Source of the DNA: an uncultured virus (IMG/VR IMGVR_UViG_3300025018_001528)
Taxonomy: Duplodnaviria; Heunggongvirae; Uroviricota; Caudoviricetes
Direction: 5' to 3' (one strand)
Virus record (IMG/VR): IMGVR_UViG_3300025018_001528
DNA: 20,000 bases
The notes below the pieces were generated by a model. That model made no database searches, was not told where the DNA came from, and was given only the letters and a program-made list of their open reading frames with translations. A program made the position numbers and the translations under genes. This document shows positions 3,252 through 15,647 of the stretch, piece by piece. How positions within the stretch are numbered: position 1 is the stretch's first letter; each line of letters opens with the position of its first letter.

Positions 3252-3986
3252 TTATTTCTTAATATAAACCCTCCAACGATCATGTATATTAAGAAATTGT
3301 AAGAAATGCTTATTTATACGCTCAGACTCTTCTTTTAAGAAAGCAAATGTTATTGGAGGAGGCTCCACCTTATCATCGCCCCAATCATACCAATCATCAA
3401 GAGCACCATGAAAATATTTGTCCCCAGTACACCCACCTCTTCCTTCACCACAATAAAACAATAACTGACCAGTACGCATTACATTTACTACCTCTGTCGC
3501 AAAAGATTCATCATATGGGGGCCATGATAAAATTACACCATCAAATTTATTGACGTTTTCTTCAATAAATTTAACAGCATCCCCCCTTATAACATTACCC
3601 CATGACCGGTAGATTTCATGATACTTATCTTTGTCCGCGTTTATAGCGTCAACCGCGAGACCTTTTTCTCGCAATGCGTGGGCCAATACACCATGCCCAC
3701 ATCCAGCATCAACCAATGTGGTTACCCCAAGCTTTCTGCACACATATACAAAATCCTGGATTATTTCGCAGGTTATAATCGCCCACGAAATATTTTTAAC
3801 ATATATAGACCTGAAAGCAATTACAGACAGCATATTTTTAATATCCCTACTTGTATATGGCGCAAATTCTTTTATGGTTGGGATATATTTTCTTGCTATC
3901 CAATCTTCTACTACATTGTTAGCAAGTTCTATATATACCCCATATTTATCTCTCTTAGTAGGGTGCGTCGCAGTTTTAGTTTCCAC
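3252..3986 (-). CDS. class I SAM-dependent methyltransferase-like protein (start uncertain)
   Basis: Motif I LVDAGCGHG, then SWPPY and GEGRGGCTGD. GTG at 3986 overlaps the Ubl 3' end; the ORF-track start at 4094 is probably too long. Confidence 0.75.
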   Translation of the reverse strand: METKTATHPTKRDKYGVYIELANNVVEDWIARKYIPTIKEFAPYTSRDIKNMLSVIAFRSIYVKNISWAIITCEIIQDFVYVCRKLGVTTLVDAGCGHGVLAHALREKGLAVDAINADKDKYHEIYRSWGNVIRGDAVKFIEENVNKFDGVILSWPPYDESFATEVVNVMRTGQLLFYCGEGRGGCTGDKYFHGALDDWYDWGDDKVEPPPITFAFLKEESERINKHFLQFLNIHDRWRVYIKK

Positions 3987-4206
3987 GAATCTTGGCCACC
4001 GCCAAAACCGTATCCCCGGCCTCGACGTATTCGTTAACTTCGGCGCTGTTCCCGTTCTTCTGGATCTCGCAGCTACCCAAATCCTTAATCCCAATCAGAC
4101 CAAATAACTCGCAGATCTTCTTCTTCCCATCAATTGCCAGTTCATGCAGCTGACCTGGGATCTTGCCGATGGTAATAATATTCTCACCCTTGTTAGACTC
4201 AGTCAT
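3976..4206 (-). CDS. ubiquitin-like beta-grasp protein (ThiS/MoaD/Ubl fold)
   Basis: 76 aa; ...IQKNG...VEAGDTVLAVAKIRGN matches the ThiS/MoaD-type 'NG...GDxV' C-terminal pattern with a subterminal Gly. Directly downstream of the E1; GGAGG RBS. Confidence 0.82.
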   Translation of the reverse strand: MTESNKGENIITIGKIPGQLHELAIDGKKKICELFGLIGIKDLGSCEIQKNGNSAEVNEYVEAGDTVLAVAKIRGN

Positions 4207-4220
4207 TGTTCTAATCCTCC

Positions 4221-4922
4221 TTAGAATTTTTTATTGATGATTAACATCGGAGACAACGACAAAATTATTTCATTTGGAAATGGTTTGTTGTTAACGAAAT
4301 TGAGCATAGAGAATACTGCCATCCCAGCGATTGTGTCTACTGTAGGAGCAATAGCGCGACGTGTACACACAGATTCTTCAGCCTCCTCGTCTGAATAGAG
4401 TGTTTTTTCATACGCCTCCACTTGCGCAGGAATTGTTGGCTTAACTACGTATATCCTCCCTCCCTCAGCCTCCATCCTGGTTTCAATTAATAGATCAACG
4501 GCTAGTTGATATTTCACTGACTTATCCCATATCTGTTTCCGACTTTTCATAGTATCAGTAAGAACAAAAACGATTCCCTTTAACGGTCCTCCAGTGAATT
4601 TTTTGGGGATTGCTTTGATCTTAACACCGGTTGCATCCAACACCATTTCAGCTATAGCATGGACTTTTTTGGCCCCAATATCCTTAATCCTAAATATTTG
4701 ATTCGGTAGATTGTAATTCTCTACTCCATCATCATCATACACTGTAATATCCTTACATCCCATTTTGGCAAGGAGCATAGTGATGTATGAGCCCGTAGCA
4801 CCCGCGCCAATTACAGTAACTGGCGTCTTAAACTTCGTTGGCGAAAAGATATCTAACTGTCGCCAGAAATCAGGCTCTTGTCCTTTTCCTTCCACCAGCC
4901 TTCCCCCTTTGTCCCTTGCCAT
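4221..4922 (-). CDS. ThiF/MoeB-family E1-like adenylyltransferase
   Basis: RQ motif, VTVIGAGATGS nucleotide-binding loop, DDDGVENYNLPNQ, K-K, LTD, and a candidate catalytic Cys in ESVCT. Confidence 0.92.
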   Translation of the reverse strand: MARDKGGRLVEGKGQEPDFWRQLDIFSPTKFKTPVTVIGAGATGSYITMLLAKMGCKDITVYDDDGVENYNLPNQIFRIKDIGAKKVHAIAEMVLDATGVKIKAIPKKFTGGPLKGIVFVLTDTMKSRKQIWDKSVKYQLAVDLLIETRMEAEGGRIYVVKPTIPAQVEAYEKTLYSDEEAEESVCTRRAIAPTVDTIAGMAVFSMLNFVNNKPFPNEIILSLSPMLIINKKF

Positions 4923-5596
4923 ATATACCCTCCTCCATGAGTTACCTTCTTTTTAATCTCTTTGGCGATTTCTTTCCTGCGGTTTTCATCATGGCCAACC
5001 TTAACATCGATTTGCCATGGGCAATCAACAATCTTCAACTTACGTTCGTAATCGAAGAACGTGAAAGAACAGTGCCCTTCTCTGGAAAATATCCCACGGA
5101 TAAAATATTTATTGTGCGCAAACAGATCCATCTGATTCTCATCCTGTGCAGATGGTCCAACCCAACTACCAGGATGAACATGTCCCCAGAAGAGAATACG
5201 ATTCAACATAGCCTTGTTGTTTGGGTTGGCCTTGAGCATGTCAATATAAAATTGGCTGACACTGTTCTGATCAATTTCGGTATGTTCATAACTTACTGAT
5301 TGCTTAAATAAAAATACTTTCTCGATTAAATACCCACCATTCTCAGTCTCTTTCACAGACCCAAGCCATGATATTTCTTCAGTACCACTCTCCTGCATGA
5401 TATAATTCATATCACGAAGGGCCTCTATAGAAATAAGGATATTTGGGATTTCATTTGCACCCAGACGTTCCACTTTTGTTTCTGCTACGTGTGGTACCAA
5501 GGGCCTGGCCGGAGCAGGTGTGTGTACATACATACCATCCCAACCACCCCCATAATCTCCATTTAAATACCCATCATAATATCTACTTTTTGTCAT
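4853..5596 (-). CDS. JAB/MPN+ (JAMM) metallopeptidase
   Basis: Catalytic Glu in EEISWLG and the HxH-x7-S-xx-D motif GHVHPGSWVGPSAQD. Confidence 0.88.
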   Translation of the reverse strand: MTKSRYYDGYLNGDYGGGWDGMYVHTPAPARPLVPHVAETKVERLGANEIPNILISIEALRDMNYIMQESGTEEISWLGSVKETENGGYLIEKVFLFKQSVSYEHTEIDQNSVSQFYIDMLKANPNNKAMLNRILFWGHVHPGSWVGPSAQDENQMDLFAHNKYFIRGIFSREGHCSFTFFDYERKLKIVDCPWQIDVKVGHDENRRKEIAKEIKKKVTHGGGYIWQGTKGEGWWKEKDKSLISGDS

Positions 5597-6215
5597 TTTC
5601 CTCTTCTTTCTTAGCCTTTTTTAAAGGCCAATTTGTGATCTTTGAACGATGTCCACCATCCTCATTAACTGATTTCAAATATTGGATACACACTGAAATC
5701 GCTGCTGCATATTGATACCCTGCAATCATTTGAGGTAAACATTCTTGGATATTACCAAGACATGGATCTCCATTTTCATACACATGTGGATGAGCTGTAC
5801 CATTTAATGACCTGGTCAAATTTTGCATTTTTACAATAAAATTCCTCGGATTAATTGATAAAACAATTTTAAATTTACCAATATCATACACTTTATTGTG
5901 ATATTCAATATAAATTGGCCCAGTAAATATAGTAATATAATTTTCATCTATTAATAAACCTTCTATGTCTGGATGGGTCATTAATCTATCAAATTCTATA
6001 CCTTTAATTTCCGCAAACTCTGGTGTATCAATACGGGCTACCTGGTATTCAGTCCTTGTTTCCTCAAGATCTCTAATATAATTTACCAAATCAATTTGGG
6101 CCGCAACAACGTGCTCTTCTTTATCACGCATTAACCGTTCCAGCTTCTTTATCTTATTTAATCTATTACCACTAACTAGATCTATATATTTTCGACGCAT
6201 TAGAATTGTATCCAT
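5583..6215 (-). CDS. E2/UBC-like protein with N-terminal coiled coil (paralog B)
   Basis: HPHVYENGDPCLG resembles the UBC active-site signature HPN(V/I)xxxGxICL; adjacent to JAB, E1 and Ubl. Confidence 0.75.
   Translation of the reverse strand: MDTILMRRKYIDLVSGNRLNKIKKLERLMRDKEEHVVAAQIDLVNYIRDLEETRTEYQVARIDTPEFAEIKGIEFDRLMTHPDIEGLLIDENYITIFTGPIYIEYHNKVYDIGKFKIVLSINPRNFIVKMQNLTRSLNGTAHPHVYENGDPCLGNIQECLPQMIAGYQYAAAISVCIQYLKSVNEDGGHRSKITNWPLKKAKKEEENDKK
5720..5765. repeat. 46-nt exact direct repeat (second copy 6372-6417) covering the E2-like active-site codons
   Basis: ctgcaatcatttgaggtaaacattcttggatattaccaagacatgg occurs at both positions. Confidence 0.9.
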
Positions 6216-6249
6216 TAATATACCCCAATCTTACCTTGATATCTCTTTC

Positions 6250-7119
6250 CTATTTCCCTCTTCTCTTTGCCATTTTTAAAGGCCAATTGTGAATATTTAC
6301 ATAATATCCACTATCATTAACTGATTTTAAATATTGAATACATACAAAAATAGCGGCTGCAAATTGCCGTGCTGCAATCATTTGAGGTAAACATTCTTGG
6401 ATATTACCAAGACATGGCCGCCCATTATTACGTATGTGTGGATGAGCATAACCTTTAATCTTTCTGGTCAAATTACGCATTTTTACTATAAATTCCGTAG
6501 GGTTAATTGCTAATACTATTTTAAATTCACCAACATCATATATCTTATTATTATACTTAATATAAATAGGTCTAGTCCATACAGTAAAATAATTATCATC
6601 TATAAATATCCTTACTATATCAGGATTAGCCATTAACTTATCAAATTCAACACCTTTGTTTTCTGTGATACCCTGATCACCTTCACAAATTACTTTATAT
6701 TCTCTATTTTTCCCCTCAAGATTTCTTAGGTTATTTACCAAATCTATTTGAATCGCGTGGATGCGTGCTTCTTGATCATGTATCGCATGTTTTAGGTGTT
6801 CCACTGCTTTTTTTGACCTTAAACCACTAGCTATTTCAATATATTTTTGCCGCATTTCTTGTCTTTTATCTTTCAGTTTTGACTTAAATGATTCGTCTAC
6901 TGTAGCCATATACACTCCACGATATACAGTACGACTACTTTTTAACTTACTTATTGGTAATTTTAGTACCTTACATACCTCCTTAAAATGCTTGGCATGT
7001 ACACCAACAACGGTTTGTTTGTTGACCTTTAAACGACCAGCCACAAACCTAGATAATTCGGGTTTATTCTTGAAATAGGCCTCTTTTAAAGCAACCACCG
7101 AATCTGGATGTACCCTCAT
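6250..7119 (-). CDS. E2/UBC-like protein with extended N-terminus and coiled coil (paralog A)
   Basis: HPHIRNNGRPCLG; C-terminal half highly similar to 5583..6215. Confidence 0.75.
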   Translation of the reverse strand: MRVHPDSVVALKEAYFKNKPELSRFVAGRLKVNKQTVVGVHAKHFKEVCKVLKLPISKLKSSRTVYRGVYMATVDESFKSKLKDKRQEMRQKYIEIASGLRSKKAVEHLKHAIHDQEARIHAIQIDLVNNLRNLEGKNREYKVICEGDQGITENKGVEFDKLMANPDIVRIFIDDNYFTVWTRPIYIKYNNKIYDVGEFKIVLAINPTEFIVKMRNLTRKIKGYAHPHIRNNGRPCLGNIQECLPQMIAARQFAAAIFVCIQYLKSVNDSGYYVNIHNWPLKMAKRRGK

Positions 7120-7451
7120 TGATTACCCTCTTGTGGTGGATCTGGTTGAAAACCAATAGACCAATCAATCCAATAAATCATCCCAGCTGCCATAGTCACT
7201 ATCAAAAATATGGCAACTATTGAATCAATTGGTTGTACTAAACGCAACGGGATTGGCCTATAAATTATAACTAATATCGCTGATATCCAGTGGCTAGTAC
7301 AATATACACAGGACACAAGTTTACCAAGCCATGCATTCTTTTTACGGACCCATTGCCTGATGGGTCTCATAACCCCAGCCTTACTAATGGAGCAAGAAAT
7401 TGATGCCACCGCACCAGCCAGTATTAAACAAACAAGCAGCCCATTAAACAT
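7116..7451 (-). CDS. DUF1360-like membrane protein with CxxC
   Basis: TM segments plus LGKLVSCVYCTSHW (G-L-x-CxxC-xx-W pattern). Start at ATG 7451 follows GGAGGT. Confidence 0.7.
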   Translation of the reverse strand: MFNGLLVCLILAGAVASISCSISKAGVMRPIRQWVRKKNAWLGKLVSCVYCTSHWISAILVIIYRPIPLRLVQPIDSIVAIFLIVTMAAGMIYWIDWSIGFQPDPPQEGNQ

Positions 7452-7467
7452 TGTGCCACCTCCAAAA

Positions 7468-7695
7468 TTAACATTCACAATTATGCGAAGGACGCCGGTC
7501 CTGTCTCTGATTAATCCTTTCCTGTGTCCTATTAATCAACCCACCAACATTCTTAATATCACTATCTAAATTGCGTAACACTTCATCAACGCCGGGGATA
7601 ACGGCCATTTCAAGCCCAAGACCGTCAAAATCATTAGAACCGCCCCCCCCACCGCCTTTATGCGACCTCTTCTTAATCTGCTCCTGTGCACTCAC
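7468..7695 (-). CDS. small Pup-like protein (75 aa), C-terminus CEC
   Basis: N-terminus AQEQIKKRSHKGGGGGG resembles Pup MAQEQTKRGGGGG; VDEVLRNLDSDI resembles Pup TDDLLDEIDDVL. Directly follows the ARC-like ATPase. Lacks GG[E/Q]. Confidence 0.55.
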   Translation of the reverse strand: MSAQEQIKKRSHKGGGGGGSNDFDGLGLEMAVIPGVDEVLRNLDSDIKNVGGLINRTQERINQRQDRRPSHNCEC

Positions 7696-7698
7696 AAC

Positions 7699-9378
7699 TT
7701 ACCTCCTTATAGGAATAATATTTGTAACATCTTCACGAAAACCAGCAACAACTTCTTCCAATTCAGTGTTATGATTGAGCCCACAGTTCTGTGCCTCAAT
7801 CTTGTCAATCGCCATCATTATATCCTCTTCACATACCCCAGTCTTTGCTGACCTCTTAATGTCTTTGTGGATAGCGATTGAAATCGCTTGATCCACAATA
7901 CCGACCACCATCCCCCCATTCACCAATTGCTTAAGTGTGAACGGAATCATGCCACCCCTTTTAGTACGAATCTCATATAATATTCTGGTATCGGAAAACA
8001 ATGATTCAGAAGCCTTCTGTGAGAGTACCACCTTAGGTATATCCTTATTGGTGGGAACGCCCTTTAAGGCGATCATAAAAATCTCAGCAGCAGACTTCAC
8101 TGTAGGCCTTGTGACTTTTATCTTCCTGTCAATTCGCCCATCACGTGTTACTGCGGGATCAAGTACATCGGCCCTATTGGTCGCAAGCAATACCAGTGCA
8201 CCAGACTCTTCCATACCATCCATCTCCGCCAAAAACATCGGGACGATGGTATTATTTATGTCCGAACTGATACCAGAACCACGCCTAGCTAGGATGGCGT
8301 CGGCTTCGTCAATAAATACTACAGCAGGGAACCCGTTCTTAGCCTTGTGTTTTTTGGCATTTTCGAAGATCCTGCGAATTGTGGCCTCTGCCACACCCAC
8401 ATATTTGTCCAGGATCTCGGGTCCCTTGATATAGTGAAATCCGCTTCCATTGCCATTCTGCTTATGAATAGCAGCCATTGCAGTAGCTGCTGCTTTTCCA
8501 AGCATGGTCTTACCACAACCAGGAGGGCCCCACAACAAGATCCCTTTTGCCGGTTTCTTGTTATAAAACTTATATAAATTGCTATACTTATGAGGAAGTT
8601 CCACAATTTCGACCATCTCTCTCTTTGCATCTTCCAACCCACCAATATCATCCCAGTTGATTGACATTGATGAAGTTTTAACCTCAAACTTTGTCTCGTC
8701 CTTTCCCAGGTTGTTCAGGACAATTGTTGCAGTATTATCGACAATAACACGGTCCCCTTTTTCCATCTTTTTGGCAAATTTCCCAGTGAGTACTACTTTG
8801 GATGCATCCTGGTGAGAGACTTCCACCAATTCATCTGATATCACCTTATTAACATATCGGATCTCCCCAGATATCACCGGAGCCACGACACCAATTACCT
8901 GCTTCGTCATCGGATTTAGAGTTACCGTATCGCCTAATTCTACCCTAATATATGGCTTTTGGGCATAATGCACCGACGAACCCTCAAGCACACAAATTTC
9001 TTCACCAAGTGAATTTTCAGCAAATTCAAGGTCACATACACCTTCGTCAGTCCCAGGTTTACCGGTACGATACGAATTAGAACTACCGTTATCCCACAAG
9101 ACTTGAGCCCAACCACTCTCATCAATCTTTTGTATTACTCCGGGGACTGTACTCTGATGGGCAAAACTGGAATCCCTACGAAGTTTTACCTTTAAACCCT
9201 TAACAAACTTAGACCACTCTATCTGCCCAGTAACGCCACCAATAACGATACCTTGAAGAAAGGGGGGGGTACGAAATTGATCCAAAACCTCTTCTTGTGC
9301 CATAATAACTTTTTTGGCCTCAATGAGGTTTTTCTTCATAACCTCCAAGGCCTCCATCAGTTTTGCATTATCATCCAT
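7699..9378 (-). CDS. arc: ARC/Mpa-type proteasome-associated AAA+ ATPase (559 aa from MDDNAK)
   Basis: N-terminal coiled coil ending in PP, OB-like region, WDDIGGL, Walker A GPPGCGKT, KGPEILDKYVG, Walker B FIDEAD, RRGSGISSD, TNRADVLDPA..RDGRIDRKI, and an ARC-like C-terminal NGGMVVGIVDQA region. Confidence 0.88.
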   Translation of the reverse strand: MDDNAKLMEALEVMKKNLIEAKKVIMAQEEVLDQFRTPPFLQGIVIGGVTGQIEWSKFVKGLKVKLRRDSSFAHQSTVPGVIQKIDESGWAQVLWDNGSSNSYRTGKPGTDEGVCDLEFAENSLGEEICVLEGSSVHYAQKPYIRVELGDTVTLNPMTKQVIGVVAPVISGEIRYVNKVISDELVEVSHQDASKVVLTGKFAKKMEKGDRVIVDNTATIVLNNLGKDETKFEVKTSSMSINWDDIGGLEDAKREMVEIVELPHKYSNLYKFYNKKPAKGILLWGPPGCGKTMLGKAAATAMAAIHKQNGNGSGFHYIKGPEILDKYVGVAEATIRRIFENAKKHKAKNGFPAVVFIDEADAILARRGSGISSDINNTIVPMFLAEMDGMEESGALVLLATNRADVLDPAVTRDGRIDRKIKVTRPTVKSAAEIFMIALKGVPTNKDIPKVVLSQKASESLFSDTRILYEIRTKRGGMIPFTLKQLVNGGMVVGIVDQAISIAIHKDIKRSAKTGVCEEDIMMAIDKIEAQNCGLNHNTELEEVVAGFREDVTNIIPIRR

Positions 9379-9397
9379 CCTACGCTTCCTCCCCTTT

Positions 9398-9793
9398 CTA
9401 GTTAAAGGTTGGTTTCTTTTTGTCATCGTTGCCAAAGCTCGGGAAATTAGGAGTGCCATCTTCACCAATTGGTATAGAAAGAACCTTAATATTTTTACTC
9501 ATCTCTTTTAAATTAATCATTCCAGTTGTGGTAGCAATAACAAGGGCTATCATAAACTCTTCCTTGTTATCCTGTACAACATTTAAGAGATGATCAACCA
9601 AGAGTTTCGAACTACAAGATTTTGCCATAAACACACGATCCGCATTTGCTTTTACCATAGTAAGAATAAATTGCTCGTTAGCTTCTCCGGCGTCCATCGT
9701 AATCGTTTCATTGGTAAGTTTATTGCGAACAGATATTACCAGGTCTGTCCCCTTTCCCTTATCCATCTTCTCATCTTTATATTCTTTCCCCAT
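9398..9793 (-). CDS. hypothetical protein (131 aa)
   Basis: ORF track; AGGAGG RBS. Confidence 0.7.
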   Translation of the reverse strand: MGKEYKDEKMDKGKGTDLVISVRNKLTNETITMDAGEANEQFILTMVKANADRVFMAKSCSSKLLVDHLLNVVQDNKEEFMIALVIATTTGMINLKEMSKNIKVLSIPIGEDGTPNFPSFGNDDKKKPTFN

Positions 9794-12243: not shown

Positions 12244-12441
12244 CTATCTCTCAAGATTTTGTATCCTTATGTAGATTTTATATCTACCACCCAATACTAC
12301 ATCCCTAAAGAGAAACCCCCACAAATCCATAGCTCTTTTTGCAAGTAGAAAAGACCCTGTGCTGTGATAATATGTAAGATATGTTAAAAAATTTGATAAT
12401 TGATTCCTAACCTCTATAGCTTGTAAACGTTTAGTGCACAT
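12244..12441 (-). CDS. hypothetical protein (65 aa)
   Basis: ORF track; GAGG RBS. Confidence 0.55.
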   Translation of the reverse strand: MCTKRLQAIEVRNQLSNFLTYLTYYHSTGSFLLAKRAMDLWGFLFRDVVLGGRYKIYIRIQNLER

Positions 12442-12467: not shown

Positions 12468-12698
12468 TTATCTTTTTATCCATCCAATACTTTTTGATAT
12501 TTTAGGAGTAAACCCACCAAATTCCTTTAATCTTTCCCCAATCCTGGTCATTATCGCTAATTCTTTTTCACCAACAATCTTAAATTCTTCTCTACCCAGA
12601 TCAATTGCACTCATTCCTGGTGACTCCAGAAACCTCCACCACTCGCAAATCTGTTCATGGTTAGCAAGTTCTACCTCTATCAGCGTTGGGTATCTCAT
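12468..12698 (-). CDS. hypothetical phage protein (76 aa)
   Basis: ORF track; ATGA coupling with the upstream gene. Confidence 0.7.
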   Translation of the reverse strand: MRYPTLIEVELANHEQICEWWRFLESPGMSAIDLGREEFKIVGEKELAIMTRIGERLKEFGGFTPKISKSIGWIKR

Positions 12699-12985
12699 TC
12701 TTCACCTGGTGGTAAAAAATATCCTTCACCTTCAAAATAATACATCAACTTAGTAGCATTTCCACCTTGTTGAAATCCATGAAACTCAAGAATTGGAACC
12801 ACCTTTTCAATCATCTGTATTGAAATAACATTTTCGACCAATTCTGATACTGGACCAAGTAGGTCTCTTACCATCTTGAGTCCTTCTGCCCCAAACACTT
12901 TTGCTTTGTCAATCTTATGGGCGAAAATAATATATGCAAATTGCCCCATATCCCTTACATCAAAAGTCCAATCACTGGGTTGCAT
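12695..12985 (-). CDS. hypothetical protein (96 aa)
   Basis: ORF track; AGGAGG RBS. Confidence 0.7.
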   Translation of the reverse strand: MQPSDWTFDVRDMGQFAYIIFAHKIDKAKVFGAEGLKMVRDLLGPVSELVENVISIQMIEKVVPILEFHGFQQGGNATKLMYYFEGEGYFLPPGEE

Positions 12986-13014: not shown

Positions 13015-13215
13015 CGCCAGCCCCCTGCCCCACCCTCACCTTGAATATTATATGCGTTGGGAAGATAACAATGACATACCCTAGGGTTAAACTGTGACAT
13101 GTGAGATCGTATAGGGAATTATAGTAAGCGGATTTAAGGCCCGCATGGGCTCCCCTTTTCCCCTGTCAAGTTTTTATCCCTTATCACATACAACATTAAG
13201 GCTACCTGCTTGGCG
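13015..13215 (-). ncRNA. putative structured ncRNA, copy 1 (family unknown)
   Basis: Shares 20-, 13- and 16-nt blocks with 13779-14019. Closing stem CGCCA/TGGCG; nested stems gain G-U pairs on the minus strand. Confidence 0.6.
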
Positions 13216-13764
13216 TTATCTGTTATTTAAATACTTAATAATATTTAGATATCTCTCAGTTAAATCAACAGAAGCGGATCGAATGCCATCCATAATAGGT
13301 CCATTTGGATACTCTAATATTATATTACATATATTGCAAAGCAAACCTCTAACTTTACCAGTTTTATGGTCGTGATCTACAAGAAAATGATTAAACCCAA
13401 CTCCTGGTTTATCAGTACCACAAATGGCGCAAACCCCACCTTGAGTCTCTAACATCTTATCGTAATCCTTAAGAGTAATATTATACTTTTGTTTTAGTTT
13501 TCCTTTTCTTTTAGATAATTTCCCATTTGGTGTAACCCAGTATTTCTTGTCTGATTTTTTCTTTTCTTCTTTCCCCTTTGGTGTAGTCCGGTACTTCTTC
13601 TTGATTTTTCTCTTTACTTCTTCCCCCTTTGGTGTGGCCCGGTACTGTCCAATTGCTGTGCGATTGCAGGGTTTACACCAATAGTTTAACCCATCTTTAT
13701 TTGCTTTGTGTTTATGAAATTCACTCCTAGGTTTTTCAATTTTACAATGAGAACAAATTTTCAT
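13216..13764 (-). CDS. Endonuclease VII-type HNH (homing) endonuclease
   Basis: N-terminal CSHC..K..SEF...DGL..WCKPC zinc finger; QGGVCAICG...VDHDHKTGKVRGLLCNICN EndoVII signature. Confidence 0.9.
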   Translation of the reverse strand: MKICSHCKIEKPRSEFHKHKANKDGLNYWCKPCNRTAIGQYRATPKGEEVKRKIKKKYRTTPKGKEEKKKSDKKYWVTPNGKLSKRKGKLKQKYNITLKDYDKMLETQGGVCAICGTDKPGVGFNHFLVDHDHKTGKVRGLLCNICNIILEYPNGPIMDGIRSASVDLTERYLNIIKYLNNR

Positions 13765-13778
13765 ATCAACCCCTTTTA

Positions 13779-14019
13779 TAGCACCAAGCGACCCTTGTTT
13801 CTTTGTTCCTCATCGAAGCAAGAGTCCCCCATACCCGCCCTCACCTTGAATATTATACACGTTGGGAAAGTGACAGTGACCCTTTAAGCTGTAAAGATGT
13901 GAGATCGTACTGGGAGAAACAGTAAACGGATTTCGGTTCCGTCAGGGCCTCCCTTTGCCCACCAGAGTGTTGGGTACATTCCCGTTGTGTGTAACATTAA
14001 GGCTACCTTCTTGGTGCTA
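13779..14019 (-). ncRNA. putative structured ncRNA, copy 2 (family unknown)
   Basis: Perfect 10-bp closing stem TAGCACCAAG/CTTGGTGCTA; same conserved blocks as copy 1; extra hairpin at about 13790-13826. Confidence 0.6.
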
Positions 14020-14022
14020 CTC

Positions 14023-14097
14023 TATGAGAGGACTGCGTGGCAAGAATTTGCGGTTCGATCCACGCACGACAACCGCACCTGTCGCTGTCCTCTCATA
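14023..14097. ncRNA. putative 75-nt three-way-junction RNA with loop-loop pseudoknot
   Basis: Stems TATGAGAGGAC/GTCCTCTCATA, TGCGTGG/CCACGCA and CGACA/TGTCG; complementary loops TGCGGT/ACCGCA. Confidence 0.5.
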
Positions 14098-14103
14098 TTT
14101 GTA

Positions 14104-14337
14104 TTATCCTAAATCCGTGTGATACCGAATGTGGCACGCAAAAGCATACGCACCTGCAGGTGGTTCGCCCTTTGCTATGCACCACCCCATTGTTATATTA
14201 AACCAGTCTCGTTCCTGCTCAGGGTCGATCTCTCTTGCCCGGTCATGAACTTCATTCTTGAACGCAATCTCCAATTCAGGCCACTTTGCTGTCGATCGAC
14301 TCTTTAATAGCCCGCATTCTTTGCATGGAAATGTCAT
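14104..14337 (-). CDS. hypothetical protein (77 aa)
   Basis: ORF track; TAATG coupling. Confidence 0.65.
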   Translation of the reverse strand: MTFPCKECGLLKSRSTAKWPELEIAFKNEVHDRAREIDPEQERDWFNITMGWCIAKGEPPAGAYAFACHIRYHTDLG

Positions 14338-14530: not shown

Positions 14531-15004
14531 TCAGTCCACTACCAGGTCAATCTCCCAATTCTTTCCCTGGATCTTCGCATCTAACGCATTATACTCGGCG
14601 GCGAGAGCATCGATCTCTTTCTGAATCGCCGGTATATTCATCGTACGGATATATTTCACTTCCAACCGTCCATACGCCCTCACTGGTTCTGTCGCTGCTT
14701 CCGCGAACTTCGCCAGTATATTACGCTTCTTCGCGATCCCATCCCTCTTGGCCAACGCATCGGCCAGCGTCACCACCGGCATTTGCGCTGGGTTCAAGTA
14801 TACCAGGGCGTTCGTCTTGTTGATCTCTATGATCAGATGCGTCAGTTCCTCGTTCGTCCCGTTGATCTCTTTGATCAACTCCAGGGGATTCTCGGAGGGC
14901 GTTTCCCCCTCCTGAGTCTTGGCATTGTTCACCAACCGCTCCGATAATCGCTCGATCTTCTTCTGTAATCCCTTCCGCTCGATCAACGCCTCGGCTAACT
15001 TCAT
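14531..15004 (-). CDS. DIP1984-family coiled-coil protein
   Basis: MKLAEALIER...NAKTQEGETPSENP...INKTN...TLADALAKRD...LDAKIQGKNWEIDL; AAGGAG RBS. Confidence 0.85.
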   Translation of the reverse strand: MKLAEALIERKGLQKKIERLSERLVNNAKTQEGETPSENPLELIKEINGTNEELTHLIIEINKTNALVYLNPAQMPVVTLADALAKRDGIAKKRNILAKFAEAATEPVRAYGRLEVKYIRTMNIPAIQKEIDALAAEYNALDAKIQGKNWEIDLVVD

Positions 15005-15647
15005 CGACTTTCTCCTTTTCTCGTTTTATTTTGGGCCAGTTTTCCAATATAACATAAGGTTTCCCATATTGATCTGAATCTGAATATGACTTTAAATATT
15101 GAATGGCAACATTAATCGCCGCAGCAAACTGATTGGCACCTATCATATGGGGCATACATTCCTTAATATTCCCCAGACATGGTACCCCATTTGTTTGCAT
15201 ATGCGGATGGGGATGACCAAATATATTTTGATCTAAATTCTTAAACCTTAACAACCACCCAATACCACCATTTGTTTCAAGATATATATTAAATCGACCA
15301 ATAAAATATATTTCCCCGCCATACTCAATCTTGATTGGCTTTGTGGTTACTATAATCCCATACCCCTCAAATTCAATATTTTCAATATCAGGATGAAGGA
15401 GCAAATTGTCAAATTCCGCACCCTTAAGTTCTGCCGATGGTTTGATCTGCATTGCGTCATACTCAAATTTCTTAACCTCCAGCTCTCTTATTCGGGCTAC
15501 TAATGCCTTCTGGCACTCCAAAATTTCAATATCCAAATTTGACATTTGTCTAGCGATCTTATTAATTATTTCTTGCCTTGGTTGACAGCTTATCTTAATA
15601 AAATGCTCTCTTAACTGGGCAATCTTTTCTGCCGGTAATTCCTGCAT
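14721..15647 (-). CDS. E2/UBC-like protein, paralog C (3' end overlaps the DIP1984 gene)
   Basis: EFDNLLLHPDI...HPHMQTNGVPCLGNIKECMPHMI...AAAINVAIQYLKS...NWP aligns with paralogs A and B. Confidence 0.75.
   Translation of the reverse strand: MQELPAEKIAQLREHFIKISCQPRQEIINKIARQMSNLDIEILECQKALVARIRELEVKKFEYDAMQIKPSAELKGAEFDNLLLHPDIENIEFEGYGIIVTTKPIKIEYGGEIYFIGRFNIYLETNGGIGWLLRFKNLDQNIFGHPHPHMQTNGVPCLGNIKECMPHMIGANQFAAAINVAIQYLKSYSDSDQYGKPYVILENWPKIKREKEKVDEVSRGVDRAEGITEEDRAIIGAVGEQCQDSGGGNALRESPGVDQRDQRDERGTDASDHRDQQDERPGILEPSANAGGDAGRCVGQEGWDREEA

Follow-up and report, generated by a model that had tools for sequence, protein, structure and literature searches.

GOLLD and ROOL are orphan ornate RNAs of phages, and in HEARO/IscB systems a structured omega RNA lies directly upstream of an HNH-superfamily gene, whose IscB-type product joins a split RuvC domain to the HNH domain. 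Free-standing homing endonucleases are further described systems that come close to the locus analyzed here. The F-CphI, or DHHRN, family shows the pattern CX2-4C ... DHDH ... R ... CX2C-N in a C-terminal Endo VII catalytic domain; F-CphI itself stands free beside a conserved gene, and the insertion that protects its carrier is a group I intron in the target (PMC6083498). SegB of phages T4 and T6 is free-standing beside stable-RNA genes (PMC13096335, PMC2988022) and can amplify tRNA genes (PMC13096335). Intronless homing is described in PMC2988022 and PMC6083498.

Here, we analyzed a 20,000-nt stretch of DNA (the window) from an uncultured virus of the Caudoviricetes (IMG/VR record IMGVR_UViG_3300025018_001528), in which two diverged copies of an element bracket a nuclease gene (Table 1). 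Taken together, it is probable from the comparisons below that the two repeats represent, as long-standing paralogs, an uncatalogued element for which a ~200-nt RNA fold is predicted on the gene-coding strand, and that the nuclease is a free-standing homing endonuclease that landed on the 3′ end of this RNA. [quoted passage not shown] It differs from F-CphI in that a non-coding RNA gene's 3′ end is the predicted target (for a paralogous nuclease, that of a protein gene), that the insertion lies at the predicted site itself and is a predicted hairpin, and that nuclease activity is putative. SegB also neighbors stable-RNA genes, but it is a GIY-YIG enzyme and its neighbors are tRNAs. Amplification of the SegB type is a possible route to the tandem RNA copies, although those of the window are not a recent amplification, since they are only 68% alike. 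The copies share with GOLLD and ROOL a phage location, an uncatalogued function, and predicted long-range contacts; however, they are under half the size of those RNAs and match no Rfam model. The HEARO/IscB layout is also seen, but the window nuclease has neither RuvC nor other IscB domains, and RNA and nuclease each occur alone.

Table 1. Predicted features at the repeat pair; positions count from the first nucleotide of the window.
Feature	Position	Strand	Remarks
96-aa ORF	12695..12985	-	Starts 30 nt after copy 1; absent there in L109
RNA copy 1, paralog B type (predicted)	13015..13215	-	Nuclease-free allele
182-aa Endo VII-motif putative homing endonuclease (DHHRN / F-CphI-type)	13216..13764	-	PF02945
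RNA copy 2, paralog A type (predicted)	13779..14019	-	10-bp closing stem, basal internal loop, 12-17-bp rod, branched cap
38-nt hairpin in copy 2 (predicted)	13789..13826	-	Between G-rich strand and 3′ closing arm
Element E3, 73-nt structured element (predicted)	14024..14096	-	4 nt upstream of copy 2; 10-bp outer stem
77-aa ORF	14104..14337	-	Ends 7 nt before E3; absent there in L109

The collinear identical blocks reported in a first-pass annotation of this DNA were all found where it had placed them, with a spacing of 798–805 between matching blocks, and the closing stems that it described are present in both copies. The similarity is well beyond chance (BLASTN E 1e-16 over the core), with 127 of 186 core positions identical between copy 1 and copy 2 (68%). 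Exactly two copies were detected by nhmmer in the virus's own 78-kb record and the same two in G001, a 178-kb record (92% complete) that holds a locus identical to the window's. Neither copy belongs to an Rfam family, as a covariance-model search of Rfam, which the annotation had itself suggested, gave no match at E up to 1 and then up to 10. The searched literature gave no account of this RNA; the catalogue of PMC10690425 is comparable only in part, six motifs being absent from four supplementary files and at least one table carrying no sequences, and hence it is still a possible source. Several known identities were rejected. A group I or II intron with an endonuclease ORF finds no Rfam match, and the copies lie between complete ORFs. 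A retron msr-msd was set aside, as 150 of the 151 G001 ORFs longer than 110 aa contained no reverse transcriptase family; Ro60, RtcB, and recombinase families were likewise absent from these 150 ORFs. Inspection excluded tRNA and tmRNA, and inspection against consensus features, with no Rfam support, excluded cobalamin, T-box, and glycine riboswitches, RNase P, the SRP S-domain, and attC.

A relative of the locus was found in metagenomes. The scan covered 44 of 64 parts with a pattern that would miss A-type copies such as that of the relative itself, and it yielded at least 120 loci, of which 120 were checked by nhmmer and 100 by a covariance model. Three of these 120 were real: L162 and L172 are the same phage, and L109 is the relative. 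On its coding strand, L109 carries in order DUF6847, Lar, E3, copy A, a 171-aa ORF, copy B with a hairpin, nuclease P0002, a remnant, and a 64-aa ORF, whereas the window has Lar, the 77-aa ORF, E3, copy 2, the nuclease, copy 1, two ORFs, and a 65-aa ORF (12244–12441) homologous to the 64-aa one. Copy 2 is 88% identical to L109 copy A and copy 1 is 96% identical to L109 copy B, whereas A and B types are 67–69% identical, indicating that the duplication is older than the split of the two phages and that both copies were kept. Four-fold sites of the neighboring DUF6847 gene are identical at 25 of 38 positions (66%) between the window and L109, a lower value than that of either RNA pair (Fisher p 0.001 and 3e-7). 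For copy B, the 96% identity may come from co-conversion (homogenisation) beside the nuclease, not from selection. The orphan 171-aa ORF in the slot between the two L109 copies (L109:1023–1538, minus strand) had no match in G001 and no usable family, and was found in two database clusters only.

Pattern and protein scans of viral contigs returned only an identical phage record and chance matches. Among genome contigs, none of 35 loci was real, and matches in cultured phages were confined to the nuclease region. With model R2, 2 of 27 prokaryote genomes gave matches of 18–19 bits only, which were treated as chance, and 1 of 15 virus records matched, being the same phage; one further record gave none. 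Eight DNA runs showed neither a joint nor a nuclease-free allele but two single-letter differences, a result from which absence is not provable. The window stretch or part of it occurs in 24 groundwater or aquifer DNA runs, 18 of which contain at least half of its words; no RNA run was listed as containing it.

The phage represented by G001 has genes for capsid, DNA polymerase III alpha, and primase-helicase, together with three tRNA genes. It also encodes a peptide deformylase, an adenylosuccinate synthetase-like protein, dTDP-sugar genes, and an adenosine deaminase (L282:5019–5960) for which at least eight clusters are 80–86% identical, making it a marker for related phages; adenosine deaminases of named bacteria are only 55–60% identical. 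Three intein-bearing genes (L282:13339–15537, L284:9122–12505, and L285:13893–16844) and several further HNH genes indicate that this phage is rich in homing elements. A possible ubiquitin-like/proteasome cluster was observed at 3976–9468 and 14721–15647 (minus strand) of the window. It comprises a 76-aa ORF ending in RGN, a ThiF/E1 gene (4221–4922) with relatives at ~32% in crAss-like and Flavobacterium phages, an AAA ATPase (7699–9468), a 247-aa ORF in which a JAB-like HVH motif was seen by eye, and three related ORFs of 210–308 aa that share a repeated domain. The final 284 nt of the 308-aa ORF (14721–15647, minus strand) are shared, in another frame, with the DUF6847 ORF (14531–15004).

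The predicted fold was compared across the two copies of the window and the two of L109. On the minus strand, 22 core pairs (12 bp of a rod and 5 bp in each of two cap helices) were paired in 87 of 88 cells; two-sided changes were seen in 5 of these pairs and one-sided changes in 7. Equally high values were reached by 2 of 500 shuffles, and slid controls reached 36–59%, although the helices were picked by eye from the same four sequences, which represent two lineages and in effect two pairs, so that the shuffle controls overstate the support. A substitution null gave p 0.006–0.05 in five of six pairwise comparisons. With two lineages, the covariation is therefore suggestive and below R-scape grade. 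Non-Watson–Crick cells on the minus strand comprised 14 G-U (9 columns) versus 1 A-C (1 column; binomial p 0.02). The first-pass annotation had claimed that pairing is kept on the minus strand; the comparison bears this out, whereas single-sequence folding does not. The window copies gave minus-strand z-scores of −0.87 and −1.07, which are not significant, the values being weak overall (−0.25 to −1.73), and copy 2, as the only one, folded better on the plus strand (z −3.42). Since the single-sequence energies on the minus strand are unremarkable, the call of that strand rests on the comparison.

A closing stem is present in each copy, with arms that differ between A and B types. It measures 11 bp in L109 A, 10 bp in copy 2, and 7–8 bp in L109 B; in copy 1 it is shorter (5 bp and a bulged extension), and the putative nuclease site is altered. 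The inner part, from the GGGA/UCCC helix onward, can be drawn in two registers that are equally compatible with the four sequences, and the alignment contains invariant unpaired blocks. Three long-range pairings of 4–5 bp, which would link the cap to the basal loop, fit each of the four copies; one-sided G-U changes occur in two of these pairings and a two-sided change in none. Because 32 helices of at least 4 bp fit all four rows and chance fits abound, these pairings are only a lead.

The first-pass annotation did not include E3. This element (folding z −4.31) is single-copy in G001 and stands directly upstream of A-type copies only. Compared with its counterpart in L109, two-sided changes were observed in the outer stem, both inner hairpins, and the loop-loop pairing. 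Two folds stand, namely two hairpins with complementary loops or a nested rod with a lower computed energy. Within SRP RNA, the Alu domain is a three-way junction with loop-loop pairing; such a junction fits both E3 copies, but the nested rod is lower in energy and no SRP model matched. E3 may be a 5′ module of the RNA or a separate RNA. For the 96-aa ORF beyond copy 1, no usable family was found.

The gene between the copies had been annotated as an EndoVII HNH gene, which was confirmed by a match to PF02945 (Endonuclease_7) with E 1.6e-22. The match spans residues 89–180, and residues 100–180 align with residues 11–96 of T4 Endo VII; Pfam and PHROGs returned Endo VII families only. The N-terminal region contains CxxC-CxxC and basic repeats, and the C-terminal catalytic domain supplies every DHHRN element (C112/C115, D130-H133, R139, C143/C146, and N147). 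The start codon, annotated 15 nt past copy 2, lies 14 nt beyond its 3′ arm (arm end 13779), and the TAA stop adjoins the 5′ arm of copy 1 (13215), as had been reported. Between the window and L109, the nuclease gene is identical at 31 of 36 four-fold sites versus 25 of 38 for DUF6847 (p 0.058). The window nuclease has 17 extra residues near its C-terminus relative to P0002 and 12 relative to other relatives (13260–13310, minus strand), which align with T4 Endo VII beyond the catalytic core. The protein is likely a free-standing homing endonuclease of the F-CphI (DHHRN) type that landed on the 3′ end of the RNA, not an enzyme that this RNA guides.

In the window this nuclease lies behind paralog A, whereas in L109 its relative P0002 (78% identical) lies behind paralog B. 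Across the two lineages, each paralog thus occurs once with and once without a nuclease behind it. The first-pass annotation did not link the extra 38 nt of copy 2 to the nuclease. A homologous 30-nt hairpin occurs in L109 copy B at the same insertion point, between the G run and the closing arm, so that both nuclease-followed copies contain the hairpin and neither of the two others does. Directly behind the stop codon of the L109 nuclease, an 18-nt remnant matches the uninterrupted 3′ end of copy A at 16 of 18 positions, a level of match found at none of 2.33 million other positions. This remnant could also pair with the 5′ arm of copy B, and together the match and the pairing are what the displaced original 3′ end of the RNA would show.

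A paralogous nuclease, 48% identical and with no RNA nearby, is encoded elsewhere in G001 (L287:4132–4734, in the region L287:4040–4737, ~175,040–175,740). The last 20 codons of the upstream gene recur, as a diverged duplicate, at the end of its reading frame, and the present end of that upstream gene is recoded at the motif. This duplicate is the best match in G001 to the 3′ motif of the RNA (15 of 18, the next best being 14); the match was noticed after the fact, but chance would not easily hit a 70-base target among 356,000 positions. The A/B swap, the hairpin, the remnant, and the paralog at a shared motif make it likely that the nuclease is a passenger that targets the RNA gene. Of the origins that the first-pass annotation had put forward, the duplication of a phage ncRNA and its invasion by a homing endonuclease are favored by the swap in L109, the different ORF between its copies, the displaced 3′ end, the covariation, and the RNA-less paralog. 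A nuclease-associated RNA or mobile unit, the other origin, finds no support, given the two of four copies that have no nuclease behind them.

Intronless homing would be the simplest reading of how the nuclease spread. The enzyme would recognize a G-rich DNA motif at the 3′ end of the RNA gene and cut nuclease-free alleles during co-infection, after which its gene would be copied in by repair. It would bring a replacement 3′ end whose hairpin interrupts the motif and whose closing arm has been remade; as we propose, the RNA would thereby survive and the carrier would be immune. However, L109 copy A keeps an intact motif beside the nuclease gene, and thus homing would need longer-range specificity or a weak enzyme. 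No 3′ remnant was found behind the nuclease in the window, which would be explained by a deletion that also took the cargo ORF.

What the RNA itself does is predicted with less support. We tentatively favor a processed, stable RNA that would lack a promoter of its own, be cut from a long operon transcript at the closing stem, and act during infection as a compact fold binding a protein, as decoy or scaffold. On the minus strand from 15384 to the copies, no promoter-like site exceeded chance, and the RNA is packed 4–7 nt behind E3 or a stop codon on the coding strand, so that it would be part of an operon transcript. We chose a processed stable RNA because its ends pair, the genes downstream of it are not related, and their ribosome-binding sites are located beyond the fold. 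The last two points also weigh against a cis-acting element retained in the mRNA, which would serve the following gene by stabilization, processing, or translational control, with the nuclease profiting from its position behind it. All four copies do lie 14–55 nt before a same-strand gene start, directly after a stop codon or E3, and hairpins upstream of T-even homing endonuclease genes regulate translation (PMC2988022). However, the genes that follow here (the nuclease, the 96-aa ORF, and the 171-aa ORF) have nothing in common, and no terminator follows any copy, one terminator-like match inside A-type copies being at chance level; we consider a cis role unlikely, though by no means negligible. 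A new self-processing ribozyme is improbable. Its internal loop below the capping hairpin would dock on both strands of the basal loop, and the resulting multi-pseudoknot core would cleave or cap the transcript. The three long-range pairings, the invariant unpaired blocks, and the tight packing between genes would suit such a ribozyme; these pairings show no two-sided change among so many compatible helices, and neither a ribozyme nor an intron in Rfam matched nor is any gene interrupted. We give a similarly small chance to a new class of compact catalytic or heterodimer-forming RNA, in which A and B, joined by E3 as their 5′ module, would dock an internal loop onto the basal loop and process or cap the transcript of the following gene, a service that the homing endonuclease would have captured by landing at and rebuilding the RNA 3′ end.

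The option of a 6S-like decoy, an open-promoter mimic trapping host RNA polymerase holoenzyme, had been raised in the first-pass annotation and gained little. With ~200 nt, a closing stem, a bubble, and a branched terminal region, the copies follow the outline of 6S RNA (PMC3847290). However, no 6S model matched at E up to 10, a TATAAT occurs, in paired form, in three copies but has been lost from copy A, and the copies have no own promoter and form two phage paralogs. The closing stem (5–11 bp) and the 5′ bubble strand (5–7 nt) are both shorter than those of 6S RNA and the bubble is lopsided; this poor fit leaves the decoy quite implausible. Repeats that act as DNA, as a promoter, an origin, or sites like cassette ends at which single strands recombine, would account for the ORF-element-ORF layout with exchanged cargo, and G-T wobble is also possible in single-stranded DNA. 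The branched 200-nt fold, promoter-like matches at chance level, the lack of a recombinase or reverse transcriptase in the long G001 ORFs searched, and the absence of the attC end consensus make such a role very improbable. Still less credence is due to an RNA that serves the nuclease as a guide or scaffold (HEARO/OMEGA-like), or to repeats that are the ends of a nuclease-carrying mobile unit. The nuclease does start 14–21 nt behind one copy in both lineages, but its 182 aa contain the Endo VII domain only, the L109 copies bracket a different ORF, and linkage is not obligate given the unaccompanied copies and the RNA-less paralog; a HEARO/OMEGA RNA-guided nuclease was rejected on these grounds.

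The preferred reading, a processed RNA with a homing endonuclease at its tail, would add to phage biology a structured RNA family that is absent from Rfam and kept as two paralogs, as judged by the predicted fold. Neither the nuclease nor its mode of spread is of a new kind, and the reach so far is two uncultivated phage lineages. The locus nevertheless documents with unusual clarity a natural invasion of a predicted non-coding RNA gene by a homing endonuclease, with both alleles for both paralogs, a visible displaced end, and a paralogous enzyme pointing to the target motif. The enzyme's site and the essential 3′ arm of the RNA are thereby open to direct test. Depending on the strain, the likely selfish nuclease gene is found behind one copy or the other, which suggests that the RNA matters to the phage.
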